A DNA stretch of 63,897 nt, filler included, from Collodictyon triciliatum (lineage: Eukaryota): NCBI GenBank assembly GCA_043381765.1. It is 10 parts of 10 records of this genome, joined end to end, with 100 filler letters (N's around TTAATTAATTAA, not from the genome) between each part and the next. Parts side by side here need not be neighbours in the genome. Positions count along the whole stretch, not along the records: positions 19,946 to 26,492 come from JBHJMP010004391.1; 9 more parts are not named here. One strand, written 5' to 3'. Position numbers and translations under genes: made by a program. Each line of letters starts with the position of its first letter. Positions within the stretch are counted from its first letter, which is position 1. The notes beneath the pieces were generated by a model. The model saw nothing but the letters and a program-made list of their open reading frames with translations. It had not been told where the DNA came from and ran no database searches. Below, piece by piece: positions 19,477 to 38,854 of this stretch.

Positions 19477-19949
19477 ACCATTTATAATCGTGGAATTTAA
19501 CGTAAAATTAACAGAATCATTAAAAACATCGGAGAATCTGCTTATGTAAGCTACTTATTGGGACGTAGCCAGACTTAAATTCATATAACGATTTTTGGTT
19601 TTTTCTCTTTCTTTTTTTTCTCTTTCTTTTTTTTCTCTTTCTTTTTTTTCTCTTTCTTTTTTTTTCTCTTTCTTTTTTTTTCTCTTTCTTTTTTTTTCTC
19701 TTTCTTTTTTTTTCTCTTTCTTTTTTTTTCTCTTTCTTTTTTTCTCTTTCTTTTTTTCTCTTTCTTTTTTTTCTCTTTCTTTTTTTTCTCTTTCTTTTTT
19801 TTCTCTTTCTTTTTTTTCTCTTTCTTTTTTTTTCTCTTTCTTTTTNNNNNNNNNNNNNNNNNNNNNNNNNNNNNNNNNNNNNNNNNNNNTTAATTAATTA
19901 ANNNNNNNNNNNNNNNNNNNNNNNNNNNNNNNNNNNNNNNNNNNNTTAC

Positions 19950-19988
<39 letters not shown>

Positions 19989-19994
19989 TATTAC

Positions 19995-20067
<73 letters not shown>

Positions 20068-20251
20068 ATAAATTGATATTAAACTTACCAAAAATTTAAT
20101 AATGCTATTTCTATTTTCTAGACGAGCTATTTTCATGAACAATTTGACGAAATATGACGGGCTGCGACGACGAGGTATCGAAGAGGTGGCTACTATCTAA
20201 AAAAGTATGACTCGGCTTTAGGAAAATCGATACCGCAACACAAAAACTCAT

Positions 20252-23200
20252 TCAATCTAAAGCCTTTACATCTGCAACTCCTGAGCTTACTGGAGAGATG
20301 GTTGCCGGATTTTCCAAATATTTTTTCTGTATATTAAAGTTAGTGTTCTGTATATATTACACAATTCTTGGCAATACCTTTTTGTCTTTCGTGTAAACAG
20401 CCCATTCTTCACAGAAGCTGTTGCAGATTATTGTAATAGGGAAGGCCATAGTCTATTTTAACAAATTTATCAAATTTATATATGCCGCCCGTTAAAATAA
20501 TTCAAAATTATGTGATACTGCATCATCTAGAGACCAAATTTACCAATATTCCCACGACAACTGTCATAGAAGCAATTAGTTTTCCAATCCATGTTTTTGG
20601 GATATAATCACCTACTCCGTTTTTAAAATGATATCAAATTCTTCTACTTGATTTTAATATATGCAAAATAAAATCTGATTAAAGTAGACTCACCGTATCC
20701 AACTGTACAAATTGTAACAATAGACCACCAAAAAGTTTCAGGAACGTTTTGAAATGAGCTCCTGGTCATTTTGACAAGTAATTTTGTTATTATATTGATA
20801 AAAGTCAAATTCAATTAATTTTCATTCATTTTGAAAATCTGAAAACGAAACAAACCGCCTTCCATTTAAATACCATCCTTTACTATCCACATAGATTCCT
20901 CTTTCAGCAAAAAACATCAAAGAAGATGAAAATATCACTTCAATTACTATTACAAATAGTAGTAGAAGCAAAACGTCGACATTACTCTTGACCGACTTCG
21001 TAGTAAACTATGAGAAATGAATAACATGATTGTATTTCAGTTTTTAAATATTGATTAAAATTCTTTGAAATATCAATATATACATTGAGTATTTGGTGAA
21101 TTCTAGAGTTCTTGAAAATCTTGAGGATTCGAACTAGTCTTAGAACTCTAAGTATGGTTAGGTTTGGCGCTTCCTTGAAAATAATATATTCTCAGTAACC
21201 CAGCAAATTGTTTTAAAAAAATAAACACAATTTAAAAAAAATTGATTTTTATCCATTGAACTGTCTTACAATCCCTGACAGCAACTCGATGTAAAACGGA
21301 ACCAAAGATAATAAGTCGATTATTGAGGCGAATTCTATAAACATACACGAGATTAAAATATTTCAAAAAACAGATGAAATCATACTGAACTATGAAGAAA
21401 GTTATTATGACAGGCATTCATAGCTAAGGCTGTTGTCAATAATAAAAAAAGCTATGTTTGTAATTACTCAATAAAGAAGCAAGAATTTTTGGCGAAAACA
21501 ATACTAGGGCTACAAACTCGACGGAAAATAGAGAAACAAAGATTGTGTTTATCAACCACCTTTTCATACAGGAAATAATTTAGAATAAAATTAAAAATCA
21601 CGCCGAAGCATTTATCCTTTATTTTATTTTAATAAATCAAATCAAAGCTGAAATTATGTTTAGCCAATCACCAGACACTGCCTCTACTTCCTTCGATTGC
21701 ATTCAAGCTTTCGTATGACACCGTAAATATTGATGATATGATCAAGAGCGTATAAAACTTTTGGATATTTGCTGCCTTTGGGTTATCAACTTAATTCAAA
21801 CGTGTTGAATTTTTCTTACTCAATAATACTGCAAATCAAGATAAACATACCAGAGAAGAGAAATTCGGATCTTTAAAGGTGTAATGAATTTTTCTTGGGT
21901 GGTAGCACGGTAATTTTCTAACTTTATCTTTCTTGAAATGAAGATTATGTTAGCATATGTGTGGTGTAATTATTATCAATATTAATTATCAATGTTGGAT
22001 TTCATAGTTGAATATCTAATTATTTATACTTCTTCCTTGATATTGCGCAATTGTCTCTTTTTCAATCGAATTTTTTCAAGAATTTTCGACTTTGGCTTTT
22101 TTGACCATTCTTTCGAAAAATTGTTGCCTAAATTTCAAATCAGCTTTATTAAAAAGTTACAAAGATCAAGCTTATTTTCTGGTTCGAAAAAAATCATCAA
22201 AACATGTGACTGAAACATAGGTATCAAGTAATATATATATTTGATTATACCTAATACTGCCACTGGAAAAGCTAAAATCTGTACATGGCCAAATTAATTT
22301 TTAAAATAATAACGTCATTCATATATATAATATGGAAATTTACAACAGTATTTTTGAAAACTTGGCGAATTAATACCGCTAATCCAAATATTGAAGTGAT
22401 AGATCCCCAGATTTTTCCTTGAGAAGTTTTGGGCGTCATGTCACCTTTCATATTATCGTATCATGCTTAGTTTTTTTAAAAAAAAATCGAATATACTGTA
22501 ATATATAACCATTCTTCTTTCATAACATTATTCAATTTACCGTAACCCAATGTTGACATTGTTTGAATACACCACCAAAAAGTAGATACCACTGAATTAA
22601 ATTTGCTACAATTACGTTTTAAATCAAAATAATGTCTTTATGTCACATTAAATAATGGTCATTAATTTGACTTTGGTTGCTGTAAAAAAAAATCATATTG
22701 CTGTCGTTATTCTTGTCACCTCTCCTCACAAATTCCGTTTTGATACTGAATGCAAAATTTTCCATCGTCAAACTCTCCTCTTTCGATGTAATACATTATG
22801 GATGATGCCAAAACAAGGAATACAGGTAGTATCAGCAACAGTAATTTAAATTCGCTTTTCGAATTTTTGACGGTCTTGAATACAACCTGAGCACGAAAAT
22901 AATCAATTTGTATCATGATCTTTGACATAAAATTTTAGATAACTGAATAAAATCGAACATTTATACTTTTCAGCTACATATGTAAACCTGAAAATCTTTA
23001 GAATACTTCCCTAGTCGTAGGACACGGAATATGCGTATTAATCTGAAAACTCTTAATAAAATAAGGCCGCTTGTGTTCTATGGTAAATAAATAATTAAAT
23101 AAAAATTTGGAAAAGCATACGGTAGATATTTTTTAAAATAATTCAACTTTAGAGGAAATCATGTCCATAAAGTAAGGAAGTATCGTCAGAAAATCAACTA

Positions 23201-25976
23201 TATTGAAGCCATCTATTGAAAAAATGCTTTAAGAACTTACTCATTTCAAGATACTAAATAACTGATATACTTTGCCCCTTACCTTTCATAAACTTTATTT
23301 TGTCATCAGTAGTCAAAAAGCGACCGACAATATCCAATATAAAAACAGAAATTACTGCTGTGTTCATAAAAAACCTACAGTGACACTAAATTAATGTGCT
23401 TTTCTAAAATTTGGCGAGCTTTGTATATGATTTGATGTCGGTTTATTTTTTCTTTTCAAATTATTTCAGAAAGTTATTATGACTTACATCAATCTTTTAT
23501 TTTTCTCATTAAACGGCTCCACTGTGCTCATTAAAAATAGGATTATTGAAAATGAAACGGTCAAGAACATGAAAGAGCTGATCAGTAGAGCCTTATTTTA
23601 ATTGGTGTTAGCGTTTAAAAATTAATGATATTAGCCCATTTTATGTTGTACCTTCTATTTAAAAACTCAAAATAGGAATAATTCTAACACTTAAGTTACT
23701 TTTTTGGAAGAATTTGGATTTGTCAGCATTTGGTTAACTTGACATTTCCATCCTATGACCTAGTATGGATAAAAAAAAATAATTTTAACTAACTCTGCTG
23801 CATTTATGATAGCCCAAGGAGGCAAATTTTGGACCTGTTGGCCTCTTTCATCCTCGGTGGATTCTTGGTCCTCGATTTCATTCTATTATTTAAAAGGTAA
23901 GGATTAAAAGAGTAATTTTCGTATCTTTTCTTAACTCTTTGGATTATCATTAAAATTTTAAACCTCATCGTTTTGCAGCTTTTCCCATTCTGAAGCAAAA
24001 TTCGAGCTGATTATAGTAATTGTAAATCCGACCCCCTTACCCAAATATAAGTTAACATTATGCTTATTTACATGGAAAATGCATGAAAAAGCACATTATT
24101 TTCATTTTTCACTTATTATGTGATTATAAATCTTACTATGGTGCCAAAAAATATTGCTATTGAGACAAATATCTTTCCAAGCGTGGTTGCAGGGATTATG
24201 TCACCTTCAATTGAATTAATTCTCAACACAAAACGTATGATAAAAGAAAATGGGACAATTGCACCATACCGTATCCAACTGTTGTCATGGTAATGATAAT
24301 TAACCACATCGAATCTTGTATACTCTGAATGGAACTAAGAGGATCAAAAAATTATCGATGAACTTTGAGTAAATCGATCATGTATAAAAGGTAAATTTGC
24401 TAGAATAACCTTGGTTTTCCGTCTTGTATCCACATTTTCATAATATCAGACCATTCTCCTCTTTCCGCATAATAAACGATTGTCGAAAAGGTGACAATAA
24501 CATACACCAGAATCGTGAGAGCTGATAGCAGTATGTTTCGACTCTGATAAAATGTCTGAATGACAACCTGAAGTTGTGAAAGGCATTTAATACAAAATTT
24601 CATAGTGATGTATGAAATCTTGTTCCAAAACGTGAACATATATAATATGTATCTTACAATTATGCTGGATGAGTATCTTCCCAGGCGAAATACTCTGAAA
24701 ATTCTGATGAGCCGAATGACTCTGATAGCTTTAAGTCCTGATAATTTCTAAGACAAAATAAATAAATGTATAAATTTTTCATAGAGAATCACAACATCAT
24801 ATACTTAATTCAAATCACTCAGTGGAATACTTAGACTTGATTCATGTCTTAAAACGTGCAATAGGAACAGTTCATTTATTCCAAATATATAGTAACTATG
24901 TATGTTTCAACTGCTTTGTAATACTGGCCTTACCACGGGTATAACCAATCCTATATAGAACGGAATTATGGAGACAATATCTATAAACGTGAAAGGATCT
25001 GCGGTTTTGAAGATAAAAATCACATTTTAGTTTGGTCACAGAGAATTTAGTTTTATTCTTTATACTTTATATGATCTTTCATTCTAATAGCACGCCAGTA
25101 TGTAAAAATTAAATTTGATGAAAAAAACAATTCAAGCCTTTTAGAAACTCTTTCATATCTCCACAGGTTGTCAATTTTCCCACAAAGTCTATGGAAAAAA
25201 CAACAGATATCACAATCTCTATTATGGACCTAACAAAAAAAAAAGGAAAGTGACAAACCCAAATGAGACAAAAAATAGTGAACAATCCACGATTTATTTT
25301 GATGATAAGGACTCTAATTTTTGACACTTAGAAGTAAATCATACCACGGTGGACCTGGATTGTCGCTGTAAAAGGACGGAAGGGTCTGGACACAGAAAAC
25401 AACGATGGACATAAGAATCAATGTCATCATAACAAAGCTCCACATCCAAGCCTATAAAAAAGAATATTGCTCATTTACATATGGTGTAAATTTTATTTAT
25501 TTTTAAAAAAAATTAGAGGTGAACAAATAAAACGGATGGATAGATATTTACTCGAAACAAAACAAGCTAAAATTCACATGTTGATTTTAATCAAAATTAA
25601 CTGTATTTACTTGTTTGGATGAAGAGGGTTCTGTTAGAAATATGTATATTTTTCCTCTCATATTTGGCGGTTCATCTATGCTTCTCTTTGTTTCGTATCC
25701 AACTTCTTTAGATTGGAAATCTTCGAGTCTCTGGATCCTTCTGGTTGTTTCTGTGTCGAATCCTACAAGTATATCATGTTTTGATTTATTCTCGGATATT
25801 TTATACGAAAATTAATGAATTTGATAAAAGCAAACGAAATGATTTGATTTTTCATGTGTTGTTCGCCTTCTGTATTAAATTTTATGCATGAATAATAGGA
25901 TGTAAATGGCAGGAAAATAAAAAATAACACAACATTATTGATAGTACATACCAGGGTCTTCTTCTATTTCTTCCAT
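20252..25976 (-). CDS. Voltage-gated K+ channel-like protein with three tandem 6TM domains
   Basis: Three S4 helices (KAIRVIRLIRIFRVFRL; LRVFRLIRIFRVLRL; LRVLRLVRILKIFK) and three pore signatures (TMTTVGYGD, TMSTLGYGD, TICTVGYGD); ATG at 25976, TGA at 20252. Confidence 0.85.
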
Positions 25977-26592
25977 ATGACTTTTGGCCAAGTATTAATA
26001 CTATCGCCTAAGATTGCTACAAAAAGCTTTCTGATAAAACTGTGAGTGAAGAGGAATATTTTCTTTCTTTTTTTTTTTGGTTTTGAGTTACTAACCCCCA
26101 GCAAAATGACCATTTTTTTCAAGAATGAAGAGAAGGGATAGAAAAGAAAAGAAAAGAAAAGAAAATAAACGAAATGAAAAGAAATGAAAAGAAATGAAAA
26201 GAAAATAAAGGAAAGGAAATGAAAAGAAATGAAATGAAAAGAAATGAAAGGAAAGGAAATGAAATGAAATGAAATGAAAAGAAATGAAATGAAAAGAAAT
26301 GAAATGAAAAGAAATGAAAAGAAATGAAAAGAAATGAAATGAAATGAAAAGAAATGAAAAGAAATGAAAAGAAATGAAAAGAAATGAAAAGAAATGAAAA
26401 GAAATGAAAATGAAAAGAAAAGAAATGAAAAAAATTAAAAAAATGAAAATGAAATGAAATGAAAATGAAAAGAAATGAAAAAATGAAAGAAANNNNNNNN
26501 NNNNNNNNNNNNNNNNNNNNNNNNNNNNNNNNNNNNTTAATTAATTAANNNNNNNNNNNNNNNNNNNNNNNNNNNNNNNNNNNNNNNNNNNN

Positions 26593-27336: not shown

Positions 27337-30300
27337 TTTCGAAATCGTTGCCAAAATCTAGGTCCCAATCTCGGTTTACTACTAATACAAGGAAGCTCTT
27401 TTCGAGATCGAGAACAAGTAAACAATTGAATATTTCTTCGACCAAGGATTTGAAATCAAATACGAATCGTATAAGAACTCGAACTTCCCGTAATGTAATA
27501 TCCAGAACCGGAAGCCAACCAATCCGGTCATATTGCTATACAAAATTCATATCTGTTTTATACGATGATTTGTTGTCCAGTATCAATTTACAATTTAATG
27601 GGACCACAGACAAAGGTCAAATCATCAATTATAAAAGCTGCGGCGACATTTTAAGTGAACAAACAATAGAGAAAATTGGATCAAAGTCGATATGCAGATG
27701 GAACTCAGGCACTGTTTTCAACATCATACCACAACTCACCGTTCCATTAGGTACTATGTTTGAAGTTAAAAGAAATACTTTATTCTGCTCCGAAGCTGTT
27801 AAAAACCATCATTATCGGTACAGTTCCATACACGGTTCTCTTTTGTTAAAGGCAACTACCATCATTAAACCCACTGCAATTTTGAGAGCGTTTGATTTCG
27901 GAGAGTGCACTGACTTGGTTTTGGACGGATCTTCCTCCATAGGGGGGAATAATGGAATGATTTTTAAATGGAATCTCTTCGAGAAAACACGTATTGGAGG
28001 CCTAAATCTATTAGAGAATTTCCTAAAGAATTCAAATTCATCAGTAGTATCTATTTATTTCCAAACAGAGCTTTTTCGGTCAATACCTGCAAACGAATTT
28101 TTCACTATCGAACTCTCAGTTACGAATATAATTAATCAAACAGACATAGCTCGCAAAACAATAATGAAAATGGTCGGAAATCCTCCTAAAATTCAACCTT
28201 CTCAGGCAAATCCAGATGTCATTGATCCGTCACAAAGAAATTCTTTTGGTATCTTGGCTGAGAGCAAACTGTGCAACAGCAAGATTGTCCCTACAAACGT
28301 AATGTGGAAGATAGAACAACCTTCTTTATTATCACTATATGACTTAGGACTATCAAATTACGAAATTTCTCAGAAATTTATAAGTTTCCCCCCGAAATCT
28401 TTGAATGATATATTTTACAAATACATTACTCTTGCTGTGATTGCGACAAACATGGAGAATTCTCAATCAAGTGAAGCCAAGGTCACCTTTTTTGTCAGAC
28501 CAGGTCCTTTGTCTCTTCAATTGATGGGAATCAATCAAGATATTGCTTATTCGCAAAGTCATAAAATCACTGCTTCTATCATAGACAGATCTGGCAATAA
28601 TGAGATTGTGAAATACAGATGGACATATCTGACAAAAAACTTTAATACCAGCGACCGTATCTTTTTCAATGGAGATACAATACAATTTACCCCCAATACG
28701 CTCGATTTAGGACTTCACGAGTTTACCTTGTATGCAGAGAAGGATTTCAGAAACGTCAGCAAAACTTTTTGGATTAATGTCGTAAATAGGGAACCTATAT
28801 CTTTGGTCATGCAAACGAGTATTGAAGGGAATATTATGAATCCCTCCGATGCAATTGAAATCAGGGTTAATACCAATAATCAAGGAAAAGAAAAAGAAAA
28901 AACCATATTTACTTGGCTGATTGATGATAAATTAATAGAGGAATCTCCACAAATTTTGTTCTCAAAAATGCGAAATGTAATAAGCATACTCCCAGGACGC
29001 TTCTCAGGGGGTCAAAAATACAAAATAGCCGTAAATGCTTCGACAGATTCAATTGTGAATGCAAGGTTTGGGTACATGGAAACTGAAATTGAGACCACTC
29101 TTCCCCCATTGCGTGGAATCGTTACATCAGACCCCCCAAATGGCACTGCCTTAGAAACACAATTTATTCTGTCCACCTCTGGATGGGAAGGAAGTCCTCA
29201 ATCTCTCCCATTTACATACGAGTTCAGCTACACCACAGTTCAAAAACCTGACGAACGTATCCTTCTGTCGTCTTCAGGGGAAAACCAGATACAAACGATT
29301 CTTCCATTGGGAAAAACTAAGGTATATGTGAAAGCCTTTAACAGATTTGGGGCATTTAGCGAACAATATGTCACAGTGGACACAATCAAACCGAATTCAA
29401 TAGATGATGCTTTGAAAAATATTGTATCTTCAAGTTATGATTCCTTGTTAAAATCAGACGATGCATATGGTATGATACAGGCTGCATCCACCATCTTATC
29501 TTGCATAGGTATGATTAAAAAATAGAACAATTACTTCCATATAAATTATTTACATACACTATATTTTGCTCGCTTTCAATCTTCTTTATTCTGATTCAGA
29601 TGTCTTATTCATTTATGCAGAAGAATTCATGGAAGCCCAAGATTTGAGAAGCTCTTCAAGTGGATACCAAAGGCAAATAACGTCAACAGTAAAAGAAATT
29701 TCGACAAAACTATTTCGCAATACTGTTAAATCCTTTACCCAAGTACCGACATCTGATAACCTACTGCAAAGTTCTAGCAGAGTATCATTTGTGATGTCAA
29801 AAATATTCTATGATGATAGCAATAGTATGTCCAGTATTTTTTCATTCAACAAACAAGTCGCTTCAAGTGCGAAGGCATACTGGTATTCAGGACAAAAAGT
29901 ATCAGCAAAAGCCATCATGGTACGATTCATTTATTTTCAAACATTAATCTTTCAGTTGTTATACTTTGAACAAAACCTCTGATACTTTTTTCTTACTGTC
30001 CTTTTGTGTGAGATGGAGATTTTGGATTTGATACTAAAATATCTTAATATTCTGTAAAATAACAATAAAACGATCATAGAGCATATCAAGAGTATCAGAC
30101 AATGCGCTATCTGTCTCCAAGCGTAAAGCTTACACCAAAGGTGTTGCAAGGCCAAAAATGATGGCAAAGTCACTTGTAGTAACAACTGTTGAAGACATTT
30201 TAACAACTCAAGTGGTCAGTTTATCACAACTTTTGACTAACCAAGTTGACATTCAGTCATATTCCAATTACGATGTAAAGTCTGTCAAAGGTAATCCTTG

Positions 30301-35858: not shown

Positions 35859-38854
35859 ATGGAAGGCTTGTCACGAAACCCTTCGCAAATCACTGAAAGC
35901 ACCATAGGACACGAGGGAAAGGCAAAACCCTCTTCACCAGCATTCACTACTATTTCAAAATCGAAATCAAAGAAACTGGTGCCTGGTCAGGATGAGTCAA
36001 TACGAATCCGAGTTGAGAGAAAGGATGTATATTCCGAATCCTCAACCCCGACTCCTTTTTCAACCCCTCAACTTCATTCTCGAAAGCCCAATCATTTCAC
36101 GGACAAATTACAAACAAGGAAAGGGCAGAAGGAAACCAAAGACTCTACCATACAGAAGGGTGTAACGATGGACACTGTAACAAATACAACAGAACTCCAT
36201 ATTACTGAGCCAGTCAAGATTCATAGCATCCCAACTAAAAAGGAGAAATCTCGCACGAAGCCTCCTCCTCTAAAACTTGAATTTGACTTCAACAAAGTTG
36301 AGCAGAGGGTATCAAATACACTAGAAGGCCAACAATTTCATCAAATTCTTTCACAAGCATCAGTAAATCACCATGAATCTGGGGGACTACTCGAAAGCAG
36401 TCCAAAAGTGAATGAAAAGGATATTCAAAGGATGTATGCGAGTATATTTGAAGACAAAAGGGAGCTGGACGAATCGTATCACAAGGCAAATCAAAATAAT
36501 GATATTTCATATCCAAAAGAATCAGCGAGTTGCCGTCACGCGGATATGAAAATAGCTTCTATAAAATCACGTAAATCTATCATCACGACAAAAACAAAAA
36601 CCGACCTTCATTCCCAAGAAAATTTCGATATCGAAGAGTGCTATCCAACTAGACTCGGAGACTTGGATAGTACAGAACTAAACGATACAATGAATTCACA
36701 AGACTTTGAATTAACGCAATCTCCTGGGCGTCCCCGCCCTCGGGTATCACTGTCGATGTGTGATGGATTAAGTGGCATCCATTTCCAAGCTGCGCAAGAA
36801 ATACCCTGCAACGAATCTATTGAACTCCCTCCATTCACCGAAGAGAAAGGTTCAGACCAAATCTCCTTCCTAAATTGTGAGGCCATCGATTCTGCCGTGC
36901 GCAGCAGTCACCCCAGAGAGCTAAAAAAGGACGTTTGTGCTATTTCTCTATCTAAAATAACAGATTCTTCGGAGATAGCTAAGAGTTCAAATGAGTACAT
37001 CGATACAACACCTATGAAGAACTCTTGTAAAGATGCAGAATTTGATGAATTGGATACGATGGAGCGCCAAAGCTTGCTATCAGGTAATAGGACATATACA
37101 CGGATGAGATTATGGGGTATTTGATTTTCCAAACTATCAAATGTTAATACATACCATGAATTAATAATTAGCTTTTCTTGTTTTCTTACAGCAACAAAGC
37201 CAGTTTCGAAATGGAGTCAAACTATAATATTGGATGTTGGCGACTACGAAATCAAGGCTGGTGTTCATGGAATCCAAGAGCCGATGATAAGAATTCCCAA
37301 CGTTATCGGACGACCAAGATATGCGCGTGCTATGGGTGCAGAATCAAACAGTGGGTGGGATGATCTAGTTGACCAGGACTTACTTATTGGACAGCAGGCC
37401 CTCTCGCTTCGTGGTGTGGTATCATTACAATATCCTCTCCACAAAGGGCGGGTGAAATGCCGGGCGTCTATAGAGTCTGTTTTGAATCATTCATTGCAAA
37501 AAATCAACTGCAGGCTGGGTCTACTCAGGAATAGGCTTTCACGCACATCCGACATTGTCACATCTAGCGCAGATGACGAGACATGCCTTTTGGAAGACTC
37601 TGGAGTTGTCATTGTAATGCCAACGGCAGCAAGTCTTACAAATATGGAGTGGAGCGCAGAGTACTCTTTTGAAACAGCTGGGGCCAAAGGGTTGCGCCTT
37701 GCTCGCTCCGCAGGGATGGCATTGCATGGTAGTGGGAGAACATCTGGTCTTGTTGTGGAATCTGGACACTCGGCCACTTGCGTCACACCATTATACCATG
37801 GCTATGCGTTGACTCATGCCACAAAAACATTACCTTTGGGTGGAAGCGATGTTACGAGGGTTTTACTGAGATACTTGTGTGATGCCGGGGCGCCACTTCA
37901 GTCTATAGCCTCTCATTTCGATATTGCCAGAGGGATTAAAGAAAATTACTCCTACGTGTCAGCTCTTCCTCCGAGCCATCCTCATCACACTGCGGACTGC
38001 TCACCTTCGACTTTCACATTGCCTGATGGAAAAGTGAGTATTTTTTTTTATTGTTATTCTAATGGTTTGTTTGTTTGTTTGTTTGTTTGTTTGTTTGTTT
38101 GTTTGTTTGTTTGTTTGTTTGTTTGTTTGTTTGTTTGTTTGTTTGTTTGTTTGTTTGTTTGTTTGCTTGCTTTTTATTTTGTGACTGCTCACTTTCAAAC
38201 AGAAGCGATGTGATAATTTAGTTTCATCTTTGAAATGATTAAAAAAAAAAGCTCATAAACTATCAAAAGATTGAAAATCTGAAATAGGGTGTGACATCTT
38301 TTCCCAACTTGTTTGAGCTTAAAAAAACTCATATACATATCTTTCATTTCGTGTATCTGCAGGTTATTTCCATCACATCAGAAACATCTGCCGCCACGGA
38401 AGTTCTCTTCAATCCGTCCTTGGTTGGACTGGAAAACCCGCCGGTGCCGGATTTAATAGTAGACAGTATTACTAAATGCGATATCGACCTTCGGAAGGAC
38501 ATGTGGGATTCCATTGTTCTCAGTGGTGCGTAAATCTCTCCGAATTCGTTTCTAATGTCTCATTTCATTAGCTTTGTTAACATTTGCATAAAAAGTTGCG
38601 TCGGTATCATTCTTTCCATCTGTATAGGTGGCAATTCTATGTTTCCGGGATTCTCTGACAGACTTCACTTTGAAATTAAGACGCGTATGAGCCCGGCTTG
38701 CCACCTCAACATAGTCGAGACGCCCAACCAGGACTTGCTCCCCTTCAAAGGGGCTTCGTTGGTCTCGGGTTTATCATCCTTTCAAGACTCTTTCATCAGC
38801 AAAGAAATGTATGAGGAGCATGGCTCACGCATCGTACACAGGGTTAACTTTTGA
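35859..38854 (+). CDS. Actin-related protein with a ~408-aa N-terminal extension (exons 35859-37083, 37192-38033, 38363-38525, 38628-38854)
   Basis: IILDVGDYEIKAG..P..RIPNVIGRPR; GRTSGLVVESGH; PLGGSDVT; FTLPDGK; EVLFNPS; KCDIDLRKDM..SIVLSGGNSMFPGF.DRL; ISKEMYEEHG.RIVHR; splice phases consistent. Confidence 0.88.

Follow-up and report, generated by a model that had tools for sequence, protein, structure and literature searches.

A 6.5-kb contig of Collodictyon triciliatum (JBHJMP010004391.1, positions 19946 to 26492 of the 63,897-nucleotide [nt] stretch of DNA analyzed here, hereafter the window) carries on its minus strand a gene that appears to encode a voltage-gated potassium (Kv)-like channel with three successive six-transmembrane (6TM) units. 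Very probably, this locus represents the first (5′) three quarters of a single gene encoding a four-repeat, single-chain Kv-like K+ channel (4x6TM, about 24 transmembrane segments), and the gene is probably a contig-truncated member of a four-repeat Kv-like channel family that has apparently not been described. A four-repeat protein is favored because four repeats are present in every one of the six full-length relatives and because the repeats in the window are orthologous to repeats 1 to 3 of such proteins. In the textbook view, voltage-gated K+ channels are formed by four separate subunits, and voltage-gated sodium and calcium (Nav/Cav) channels by four domains in one chain. If true, a natural one-chain Kv-type channel would represent an independent replay of the step behind the Nav/Cav channels.

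Three repeats in one reading frame

A 31-exon model was predicted on the minus strand, with an open frame of 882 codons running from an ATG at 25976 to a TGA at 20252 and with all exons in frame (Table 1). Its 30 introns comprise 29 of the GT-AG type and a single GC-AG intron, the donor of which follows 25138. The first-pass annotation of this DNA had reported three complete S1-S6 units, each with an S4 segment and an intact selectivity filter, and the model reproduces all three in the same places. The filters read TTVGYGD (24334-24270 plus 24204 onward), STLGYGD (22605-22541 plus 22444 onward), and CTVGYGD (20761-20694 plus 20611 onward) in repeats I, II, and III, and the S4 segments carry 7, 7, and 6 basic residues, respectively, at every third position. 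Exon lengths in repeats I/II/III are 107/104/104 nt for S1, 92/92/92 nt for S2, 65/65/65 nt for S3, 90/90/90 nt for S4, 158/167/152 nt for S5, 65/65/68 nt for the pore helix, and 68/68/68 nt for the first S6 exon. Intron positions are all common to the three repeats, with one additional S6 intron in repeat II only; the shared intron previously placed between GYG and D interrupts, in 3/3 repeats, the last Gly codon in phase 1. At the protein level, the repeats are 38, 31, and 30% identical to one another (97/253, 78/253, and 81/268 aligned columns).

The single GC donor, that of the repeat I S2 exon, is homologous to GT donors in repeats II and III, and the resulting junction yields FLKDPFTF, which matches FFKDPFTW of the relative P0157 described below and restores a KDPFT motif. 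An alternative GT donor 9 nt further on was rejected, as its use would put three residues into KDPFT. When single exons were searched against Pfam, the curated cut-off was passed by two exons only, the other exons falling under it because they are short: the repeat II pore exon scored 25.3 bits for Ion_trans (cut-off, 25) and 24.4 for Ion_trans_2 (cut-off, 22.5), and the repeat III pore exon scored 27 bits for Ion_trans_2. The best PDB sequence matches of the S4 exon were Shaker and Kv1.2 (E value, 0.002). In the 59 residues ahead of the first S1, Pfam gave no match, including to the T1 tetramerization domain (BTB_2, PF02214); exon 1 (MEEIEEDP-) is weakly like VEEIIQPG of P0157.

The integrity of these exons bears on whether the locus could be a decaying or partial gene copy from which no channel is made. 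The non-canonical GC donor, the weak donor of linker exon L1, and a duplicated GAAAATAG at 20111-20134, which makes two frames alike near the 3′ end, would suit such a pseudogene. However, the 30 repeat exons are all open, the three filters and the S4 charge ladders are intact, exon lengths have been kept between repeats, and the GC-AG junction is the very one that restores the conserved KDPFT motif; we therefore consider a pseudogene very unlikely.

The linkers bear on whether the three units belong to one gene. The peptides that the first-pass annotation had quoted for the linker exons were reproduced exactly in the spliced model. The gaps between units measure 98 and 204 nt, the former separating the repeat II S6-end exon from the repeat III pre-S1 exon, and every junction is in phase 0. 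Linkers are 20 to 60 residues long, those of the window being about 36 and about 60 residues from "EW" to S1. The model lacks any Met from the last Met of repeat II, which lies in S6, to S5 of repeat III. Furthermore, no in-frame ATG was found upstream of the repeat III exons in the genomic sequence, and the two ATGs within the 98-nt intron run into stops with no GT after them. Repeat III would therefore have a voltage sensor only if fused to repeat II. The I-II junction is weaker evidence for a single gene: repeat II has a Met nine residues ahead of S1, and inclusion of L1 is uncertain, since its donor is weak and it could be skipped in frame.

The reading that the three units are one concatenated gene produced by internal duplication, as had been proposed, is supported by the shared intron positions, the in-frame linkers, the Met-less start of repeat III, and the repeat-by-repeat orthology to transcripts of the relative Diphylleia rotans that contain a single open reading frame (ORF). 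Three separate tandem genes for single-unit Kv-like channels, with transcripts ending between the units, could accommodate the Met shortly ahead of S1 in repeat II, the fact that retention of the intron after either S6-end exon leads to a stop within two codons (..NDEV-stop and ..KEEV-stop), and repeat identities of 30 to 38%, as are possible for old tandem genes. Yet such genes would have to be separated by gaps of only 98 and 204 nt with all junctions in phase 0, the third would have no Met before S5 and no room in the 98-nt gap for an ATG-bearing exon, and each would have its orthologue in a different repeat of transcripts that, in a relative, form a single ORF. This arrangement appears highly improbable.

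Four-repeat relatives and known channels

Relatives were sought with a profile (A7) in which two stretches read through introns (X at stops) and three single exons were aligned, and which was searched against 1.84 billion protein representatives. The search returned 6227 matches at an E value of ≤0.001, 525 at 1e-10, and 7 at 1e-30, with a best E value of 7e-62, and the top matches were multi-repeat proteins with 6 to 13 matched stretches each. The channel likeness of the pieces in the window is far beyond chance agreement. By exact look-up, the top matches were Trinity ORFs of D. rotans in EukProt, falling into five gene groups, the longest isoforms of which are P0157 (TRINITY_DN1150, 1169 amino acids [aa]), P0285 (DN10099, 1213 aa), P0154 (DN8850, 1148 aa), P0159 (DN2710, 1160 aa), and P0165 (DN4063, 1439 aa). 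GYG proteins with several Ion_trans domains, for which the first-pass annotation had advised a search of protist proteomes, are thus present among D. rotans transcripts in four-repeat form. Two further four-repeat proteins, P0004 (Logan, 1748 aa) and P0010 (ENA/JGI, 1493 aa), were also found.

A hidden Markov model of the unit detected four repeats in each of P0157, P0285, P0154, P0159, P0165, and P0004. Pfam detected four stretches of Ion_trans and four of Ion_trans_2 in P0157, P0154, P0159, P0165, P0004, and P0010 alike (score of P0157, 452 bits over 4 stretches), and neither T1 (PF02214) nor the cyclic nucleotide-binding domain (CNBD; PF00027) in any of these six. All four filters of the Diphylleia proteins contain GYG, in the form TxGYG(D/E) except in repeat III of P0165 (TIGYGL).

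Each repeat in the window is closest to one particular repeat of these proteins. For repeats I, II, and III, identity to the P0157 repeat of the same number (1, 2, and 3) is 47, 48, and 47%, as opposed to 29 to 36% for other repeats; P0285 shows the same diagonal pattern, and same-numbered identities to the two proteins span 44 to 48%. The filter pattern TTVGYGD/STLGYGD/CTVGYGD is identical to that of P0157 repeats 1 to 3. In a FastTree phylogeny of 43 repeats, window repeats I, II, and III were sister to repeats 1, 2, and 3 of P0157 (support, 0.94, 1.00, and 0.97), and the Diphylleia repeats formed repeat-specific clades (repeat 3, 0.99; repeat 2, 0.95; repeat 4, 1.00; repeat 1, 0.93, the last including the long-branched P0010). 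An IQ-TREE analysis (fast, SH-aLRT, 41 repeats) grouped window repeats II and III with the corresponding repeats of P0285 and P0157 (99.1 and 98.8) and window repeat I with repeat 1 of both, inside a clade of 97.4; the P0165 repeats were unstable. Deep branching among the four repeat clades, and between these and single-unit channels, was without resolution in the trees, and no order of duplication is claimed. The four repeats of P0010 cluster together (1.00) and those of P0004 fall outside the Diphylleia repeat clades, so the four-repeat layout may have arisen more than once (P0004 and P0010/P0011).

The global alignment to P0157 is colinear across both linkers. Although the linker middles cannot be aligned, conservation is seen on either side of the II-III linker (NNFSKEW versus NNFSEEW, and HPRKIHYTFKDPNFS versus HPRKLYFTFTDPEFS in P0157). 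Given the unit-by-unit orthology to single-ORF transcripts, the order I-II-III is older than the split from Diphylleia, where repeat IV comes next in the same ORF. Two D. rotans isoforms contain junk immediately behind a GYG, that of repeat IV in P0283 and that of repeat III in P0005. They seem to have retained an intron that splits the last Gly codon in phase 1, as the introns of the window repeats do, so the intron position appears to be common to both organisms. The Diphylleia proteins thus share repeat order, filter pattern, conserved linker flanks, and the lack of T1 and CNBD with the gene in the window; they differ from it in that only repeats I to III are present in the window, in an identity of about 47%, as for another organism or a distant copy, and in their linkers, with which the shorter window linkers are not alignable.

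Modeling of the structure, another step that had been suggested, was carried out for P0157. The AlphaFold2 model (pTM, 0.64; mean pLDDT, 65.7; 657/1169 residues at 70 to 90, none above 90) aligned over its full length with four-domain Nav/Cav chains: in Foldseek, matches to single-chain four-domain channels extended over 1230 to 1313 columns with TM scores of 0.57 to 0.63 and 14 to 16% identity. The best 50 rows were nearly all Nav, Cav, or Nax, one being titled only "structure of a channel." P0157 is therefore predicted to adopt a four-domain single-chain fold; in the window gene, only three such domains are seen.

In the proposed architecture, each repeat would contribute S1-S4 as a voltage sensor and S5, the pore helix, TxGYGD, and S6 as a quarter of the pore, and the four linked repeats would fold around one central pore in a Nav/Cav-like manner. 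With one chain forming the whole pore, neither a T1 domain nor a partner subunit would be needed. The presence of GYG in every one of the four filters, in three of them as TxGYGD, suggests K+ selectivity, and the Shaker-like S4 ladders and long S4-S5 linkers suggest depolarization-activated, domain-swapped gating. Repeat IV of the Diphylleia proteins has only 3 to 5 S4 charges, with His, and Gln replaces the S2 Glu; the fourth sensor is therefore probably specialized or silent in these proteins, and by analogy the window gene may encode a weakly charged, specialized fourth sensor.

We know of no four-repeat Kv-like channel without a CNBD. A literature search of openly accessible papers likewise found none, and the matches for "concatenated Kv" were engineered constructs. 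A close precedent, described in PMC7576140 (2020), is a family in which two Kv-like 6TM units without CNBD are joined in one polypeptide, giving a dimer of tandems; its repeats are about 30% identical, form repeat-specific clades, and differ in S4 charge. That family comes from a different taxon, and Diphylleia is not named in the text of the paper. Rather than exactly two 6TM repeats, the contig has three in frame and the orthologues have four, so that in the latter one chain would make the whole pore. PMC7576140 also cites the four-repeat CNGK channels of animals and choanoflagellates. CNGK channels (sea urchin, zebrafish, and choanoflagellates), according to PMC4749565, are pseudotetrameric, with GYG/GFG filters and a CNBD in each repeat. 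They share with the present family a single-chain pseudotetramer with K+ filters in all repeats but belong to the CNBD branch, whereas the window linkers are too short for a CNBD and PF00027 was not found in the orthologues. The earlier view of a natural 4x6TM GYG channel as unusual must thus be tempered: CNGK channels are of this kind, albeit with every repeat carrying a CNBD.

The Nav/Cav/NALCN channels have the same 4x6TM single-chain layout, to which the P0157 model aligns with a TM score of about 0.6. Unlike their filters (DEKA, EEEE, and EEKE), those of the window gene and its relatives are GYG in all repeats; identity is 14 to 16%, and the repeats of the new family cluster with Kv-like single-unit channels. 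Shaker-type Kv1-Kv4 channels of animals share the S4 ladder (RVIRLIRIFRVFRLGR versus RVIRLVRVFRIFKLSR), the TVGYGD pore helix, the long S4-S5 linker, and GDMTP opening S6 (window repeat II), but are single-unit subunits assembled by an N-terminal T1, which the window gene lacks. Within the new family, the repeats have diverged to 30 to 38% identity with the pore signatures kept, and in the Diphylleia proteins the fourth voltage sensor appears degenerate. The family would offer a natural "concatemer" for the roles of single sensors in gating, for pore asymmetry under a K+ filter, and for the dispensability of T1. Its sequences are public but seem to be unannotated.

Several database searches gave further observations. 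P0162 and P0163 (JGI/IMG, 48 aa), exon-sized ORFs on metagenome contigs, share 90% identity or more with the Diphylleia DN4063 channel; some public metagenomes thus contain genomic DNA from a close relative of Diphylleia. A word-index search for longer proteins with a 115-aa S4-S5 frame gave 101 candidates, none at an E value of ≤0.001, and no relative emerged from a metagenome scan with the S5 exon of repeat III. A metagenome scan with the family alignment found 503 relatives, the best 80 loci being 28 to 40% identical over short stretches of about 600 to 1250 nt.

The contig end and the proposed fourth repeat

Repeat IV would lie past the 3′ end of the contig. This end, at 19946 within an (AAT)n microsatellite, is just 306 nt past the proposed TGA stop. 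Within the last exon of the earlier annotation, two phase-0 donors lie ahead of this stop, CCA/gtaagc after 20291 (score, 5.3) and GAT/gtaaag after 20270 (5.4), and the median score of the gene's own donors is 5.4. Exon 20252..20326 may therefore be an internal linker exon. An open phase-0 path continues past the stop, from an acceptor (ttttttag) at 20197 through 36 stop-free codons to a donor after 20089 that scores 7.1; in the whole contig, 15/310 GT sites score at least 7, and 12 of these 15 are donors of the model. The (AAT)n tract starts 19 bases past this donor and is followed by the contig end. The path has the look that would be expected of a III-IV linker, without support from homology; III-IV linkers are not conserved among the relatives themselves.

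A second frame of the 20196-20089 stretch (…IFRQIVHENSSSRK-stop) is pre-S1-like and was rejected, as its stop precedes any donor. Through the direct duplication of GAAAATAG (20111-20134, minus strand), two frames resemble the pre-S1 motif (..HENSSSRK-stop and ..RLENRNSIIKFL); the duplication could be an assembly slip or a real small duplication.

The first-pass annotation had inferred a 3x6TM subunit that would need a 3+1 partner or another unusual stoichiometry, with the caveat that a fourth domain might lie beyond the scaffold end. A genuine three-repeat protein ending at TGA 20252 would be in keeping with the closure of the 31-exon model by an in-frame stop after a 24-residue tail, with the lack of anything downstream like the III-IV linker of the relatives, and with the lack of a repeat IV in the window. 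Against this stand the six full-length relatives, all with four repeats, the orthology of the window repeats to repeats 1 to 3 specifically, the contig end in a microsatellite 306 nt past the stop, and the two phase-0 donors ahead of the stop with an open exon and strong donor after it. Three-repeat proteins, moreover, were nearly always cut forms. Pore signatures numbered one in 123, two in 19, three in 5, four in 2, and none in 1 of the best 150 matches, and the five three-pore proteins were four shorter Diphylleia isoforms of four-repeat genes and P0011, the start of which lies within a repeat and which takes up almost all of its 3126-nt contig. In a second set of 131 proteins the counts were 102, 18, 4, 2, and 5, respectively, and the four three-pore proteins were three partial Diphylleia isoforms and P0169, a snail gene model with T1 domains. 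Overall, 8/9 three-pore proteins were cut forms, P0169 being the ninth. A protein that truly ends after repeat III is thus unlikely, and the caveat, rather than the 3+1 subunit, is what the four-repeat orthologues and the contig end favor. The contig should accordingly be annotated as holding a truncated gene, a complete 3x6TM label being unsuitable.

In the predicted proteins P0169 (Gigantopelta aegis model, 1476 aa) and P0014 (1004 aa), two or three Kv units of the animal type are strung together, and every unit has a T1 domain; these proteins probably reflect a merging of tandem genes and not natural concatemers.

Several points nevertheless weigh against a four-repeat gene. The linker splices and repeat IV are predictions. 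At the I-II junction, the L1 donor is weak and an internal start is possible (Met in QMLTNPNSSKK). The structural model is that of the relative P0157, is of moderate confidence, and was built from a 6-row alignment. The in-frame TGA at 20252 would terminate a three-repeat protein, should the last exon be read to its end. The donor scores at the 3′ end are a soft argument, as the donor matrix was trained on the gene's own donors. Between the candidate exon 20196-20089 and the six relatives' III-IV linkers, no similarity was seen (z, −0.62 to 0.87), and 98 to 392 of 500 shuffles attained its score. Repeat IV was not found elsewhere in the 63,897-nt window (best outside E value, 0.45), nor were other K+-channel pieces (26/75 high-scoring segment pairs lay outside the contig, with a best E value of 0.072). 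Finally, with only about 47% identity to the Diphylleia proteins, repeat IV could have been lost in the window lineage. A natural 3+1 channel, in which a three-repeat chain that lost repeat IV relative to the Diphylleia orthologues joins a separate one-repeat subunit, is in our view decidedly unlikely.

Contig setting and neighboring sequences

The window is a chain of contigs of about 6.55 kb each, with slowly falling sizes, joined by spacers in which paired runs of 44 N enclose TTAATTAATTAA. These recur every ~6.64 kb (6554-6653, 13197-13296, 19846-19945, 26493-26592, and onward). Because the contigs are spacer-joined, neighboring genes across spacers are without genomic linkage. The low G+C content (~30%) and the many short GT-AG introns indicate eukaryotic DNA. 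On the plus strand of the channel locus, only short stop-to-stop frames were found.

Table 1. Features of the channel-bearing contig, in window coordinates
Feature	Position	Strand	Basis or remark
Contig carrying the channel gene	19946..26492		N44-TTAATTAATTAA-N44 spacers on either side, joining unrelated contigs
Simple repeat (TTTCA/TTTCT)n, upstream of gene, 5′ contig end	26130..26492	-	sequence
Exon 1, MEEIEEDP-	25952..25976	-	first in-frame ATG after stop, donor CTG/gtatgt; start inferred
Repeat I pre-S1 exon, ...RGKIYIFLTEPSSSKQ	25611..25762	-	spliced model
Repeat I S1 exon	25345..25451	-	spliced model, alignment to relative
Repeat I S2 exon, GC-AG donor AAAG/gcttga	25138..25229	-	spliced model; 92 nt also in II, III
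Repeat I S3 exon	24934..24998	-	spliced model, alignment to relative
Repeat I S4 exon, LKAIRVIRLIRIFRVFRLGRYSSS, 7 basic residues	24658..24747	-	spliced model, PDB sequence matches
Repeat I S5 exon	24410..24567	-	spliced model, PDB sequence matches
Repeat I pore-helix exon, end TTVGYG, then phase-1 intron in last Gly codon	24270..24334	-	
Repeat I first S6 exon, (G)DIIPATTLGKIF...	24137..24204	-	spliced model
Repeat I S6 end, GVGFTITIISSNFASEWEKLQNDE; retained next intron gives stop after two codons (..EV-stop)	23964..24035	-	
Linker exon L1, NEIEDQESTEDERGQQ, phase 0-0	23835..23882	-	weak donor, score 0.5
Repeat II pre-S1 exon, VIGWKCQVNQMLTNPNSSKK	23700..23759	-	spliced model
Repeat II S1 exon	23488..23591	-	spliced model
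Repeat II S2 exon	23283..23374	-	spliced model
Repeat II S3 exon	23148..23212	-	spliced model, alignment to relative
Repeat II S4 exon, 7 basic residues	22988..23077	-	spliced model
Repeat II S5 exon	22720..22886	-	spliced model, alignment to relative
Repeat II pore exon, end STLGYG	22541..22605	-	spliced model, Pfam
Repeat II first S6 exon, (G)DMTPKTSQGKIW...	22377..22444	-	spliced model
Repeat II small S6 exon, ILAFPVAVL-	22251..22278	-	junction LAFPVAVLGNNFSKEW matches LAFPIAVLGNNFSEEW of P0157
Repeat II S6 end and II-III linker, GNNFSKEWSKKPKSK...NIKEE, no Met	22030..22127	-	model, alignment
Repeat III pre-S1 exon, KDKVRKLPCYHPRKIHYTFKDPNFSSL, no Met, matches HPRKLYFTFTDPEFS of P0157	21851..21931	-	model, alignment
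Repeat III S1 exon	21672..21775	-	spliced model
Repeat III S2 exon	21468..21559	-	spliced model
Repeat III S3 exon	21270..21334	-	spliced model, alignment to relative
Repeat III S4 exon, 6 basic residues	21084..21173	-	spliced model
Repeat III S5 exon, first Met of repeat III; 63% identity to P0157 repeat 3	20856..21007	-	
Repeat III pore exon, end CTVGYG; 76% identity to P0157 repeat 3	20694..20761	-	
Repeat III first S6 exon	20544..20611	-	spliced model
Repeat III S6 end, TMAFPITIICNSFCEEWAVYTKDKK	20378..20452	-	spliced model, alignment to relative
Last exon of first-pass annotation, KKYLENPATISPVSSGVADVKALD-stop	20252..20326	-	two phase-0 donors ahead of stop
Candidate further exon, phase 0-0, 36 open codons	20089..20196	-	acceptor ttttttag, donor TTG/gtaagt
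(AAT)n microsatellite, contig terminus	19946..20070	-	sequence; presumed assembly break within intron

Two other coding sequences were observed in the window. An actin-family open frame lies at 37125-38210 on the plus strand (PF00022; E value, 2e-31), with the profile covered in part only. The contig next to that of the channel gene holds, at 27429-29522 on the plus strand, a long open frame with an REJ domain (PF02010; E value, 4e-29), as in polycystin-1-type receptors, which is preceded in the same frame by about 800 nt of repeats coding for SQ/TE-type dipeptides.

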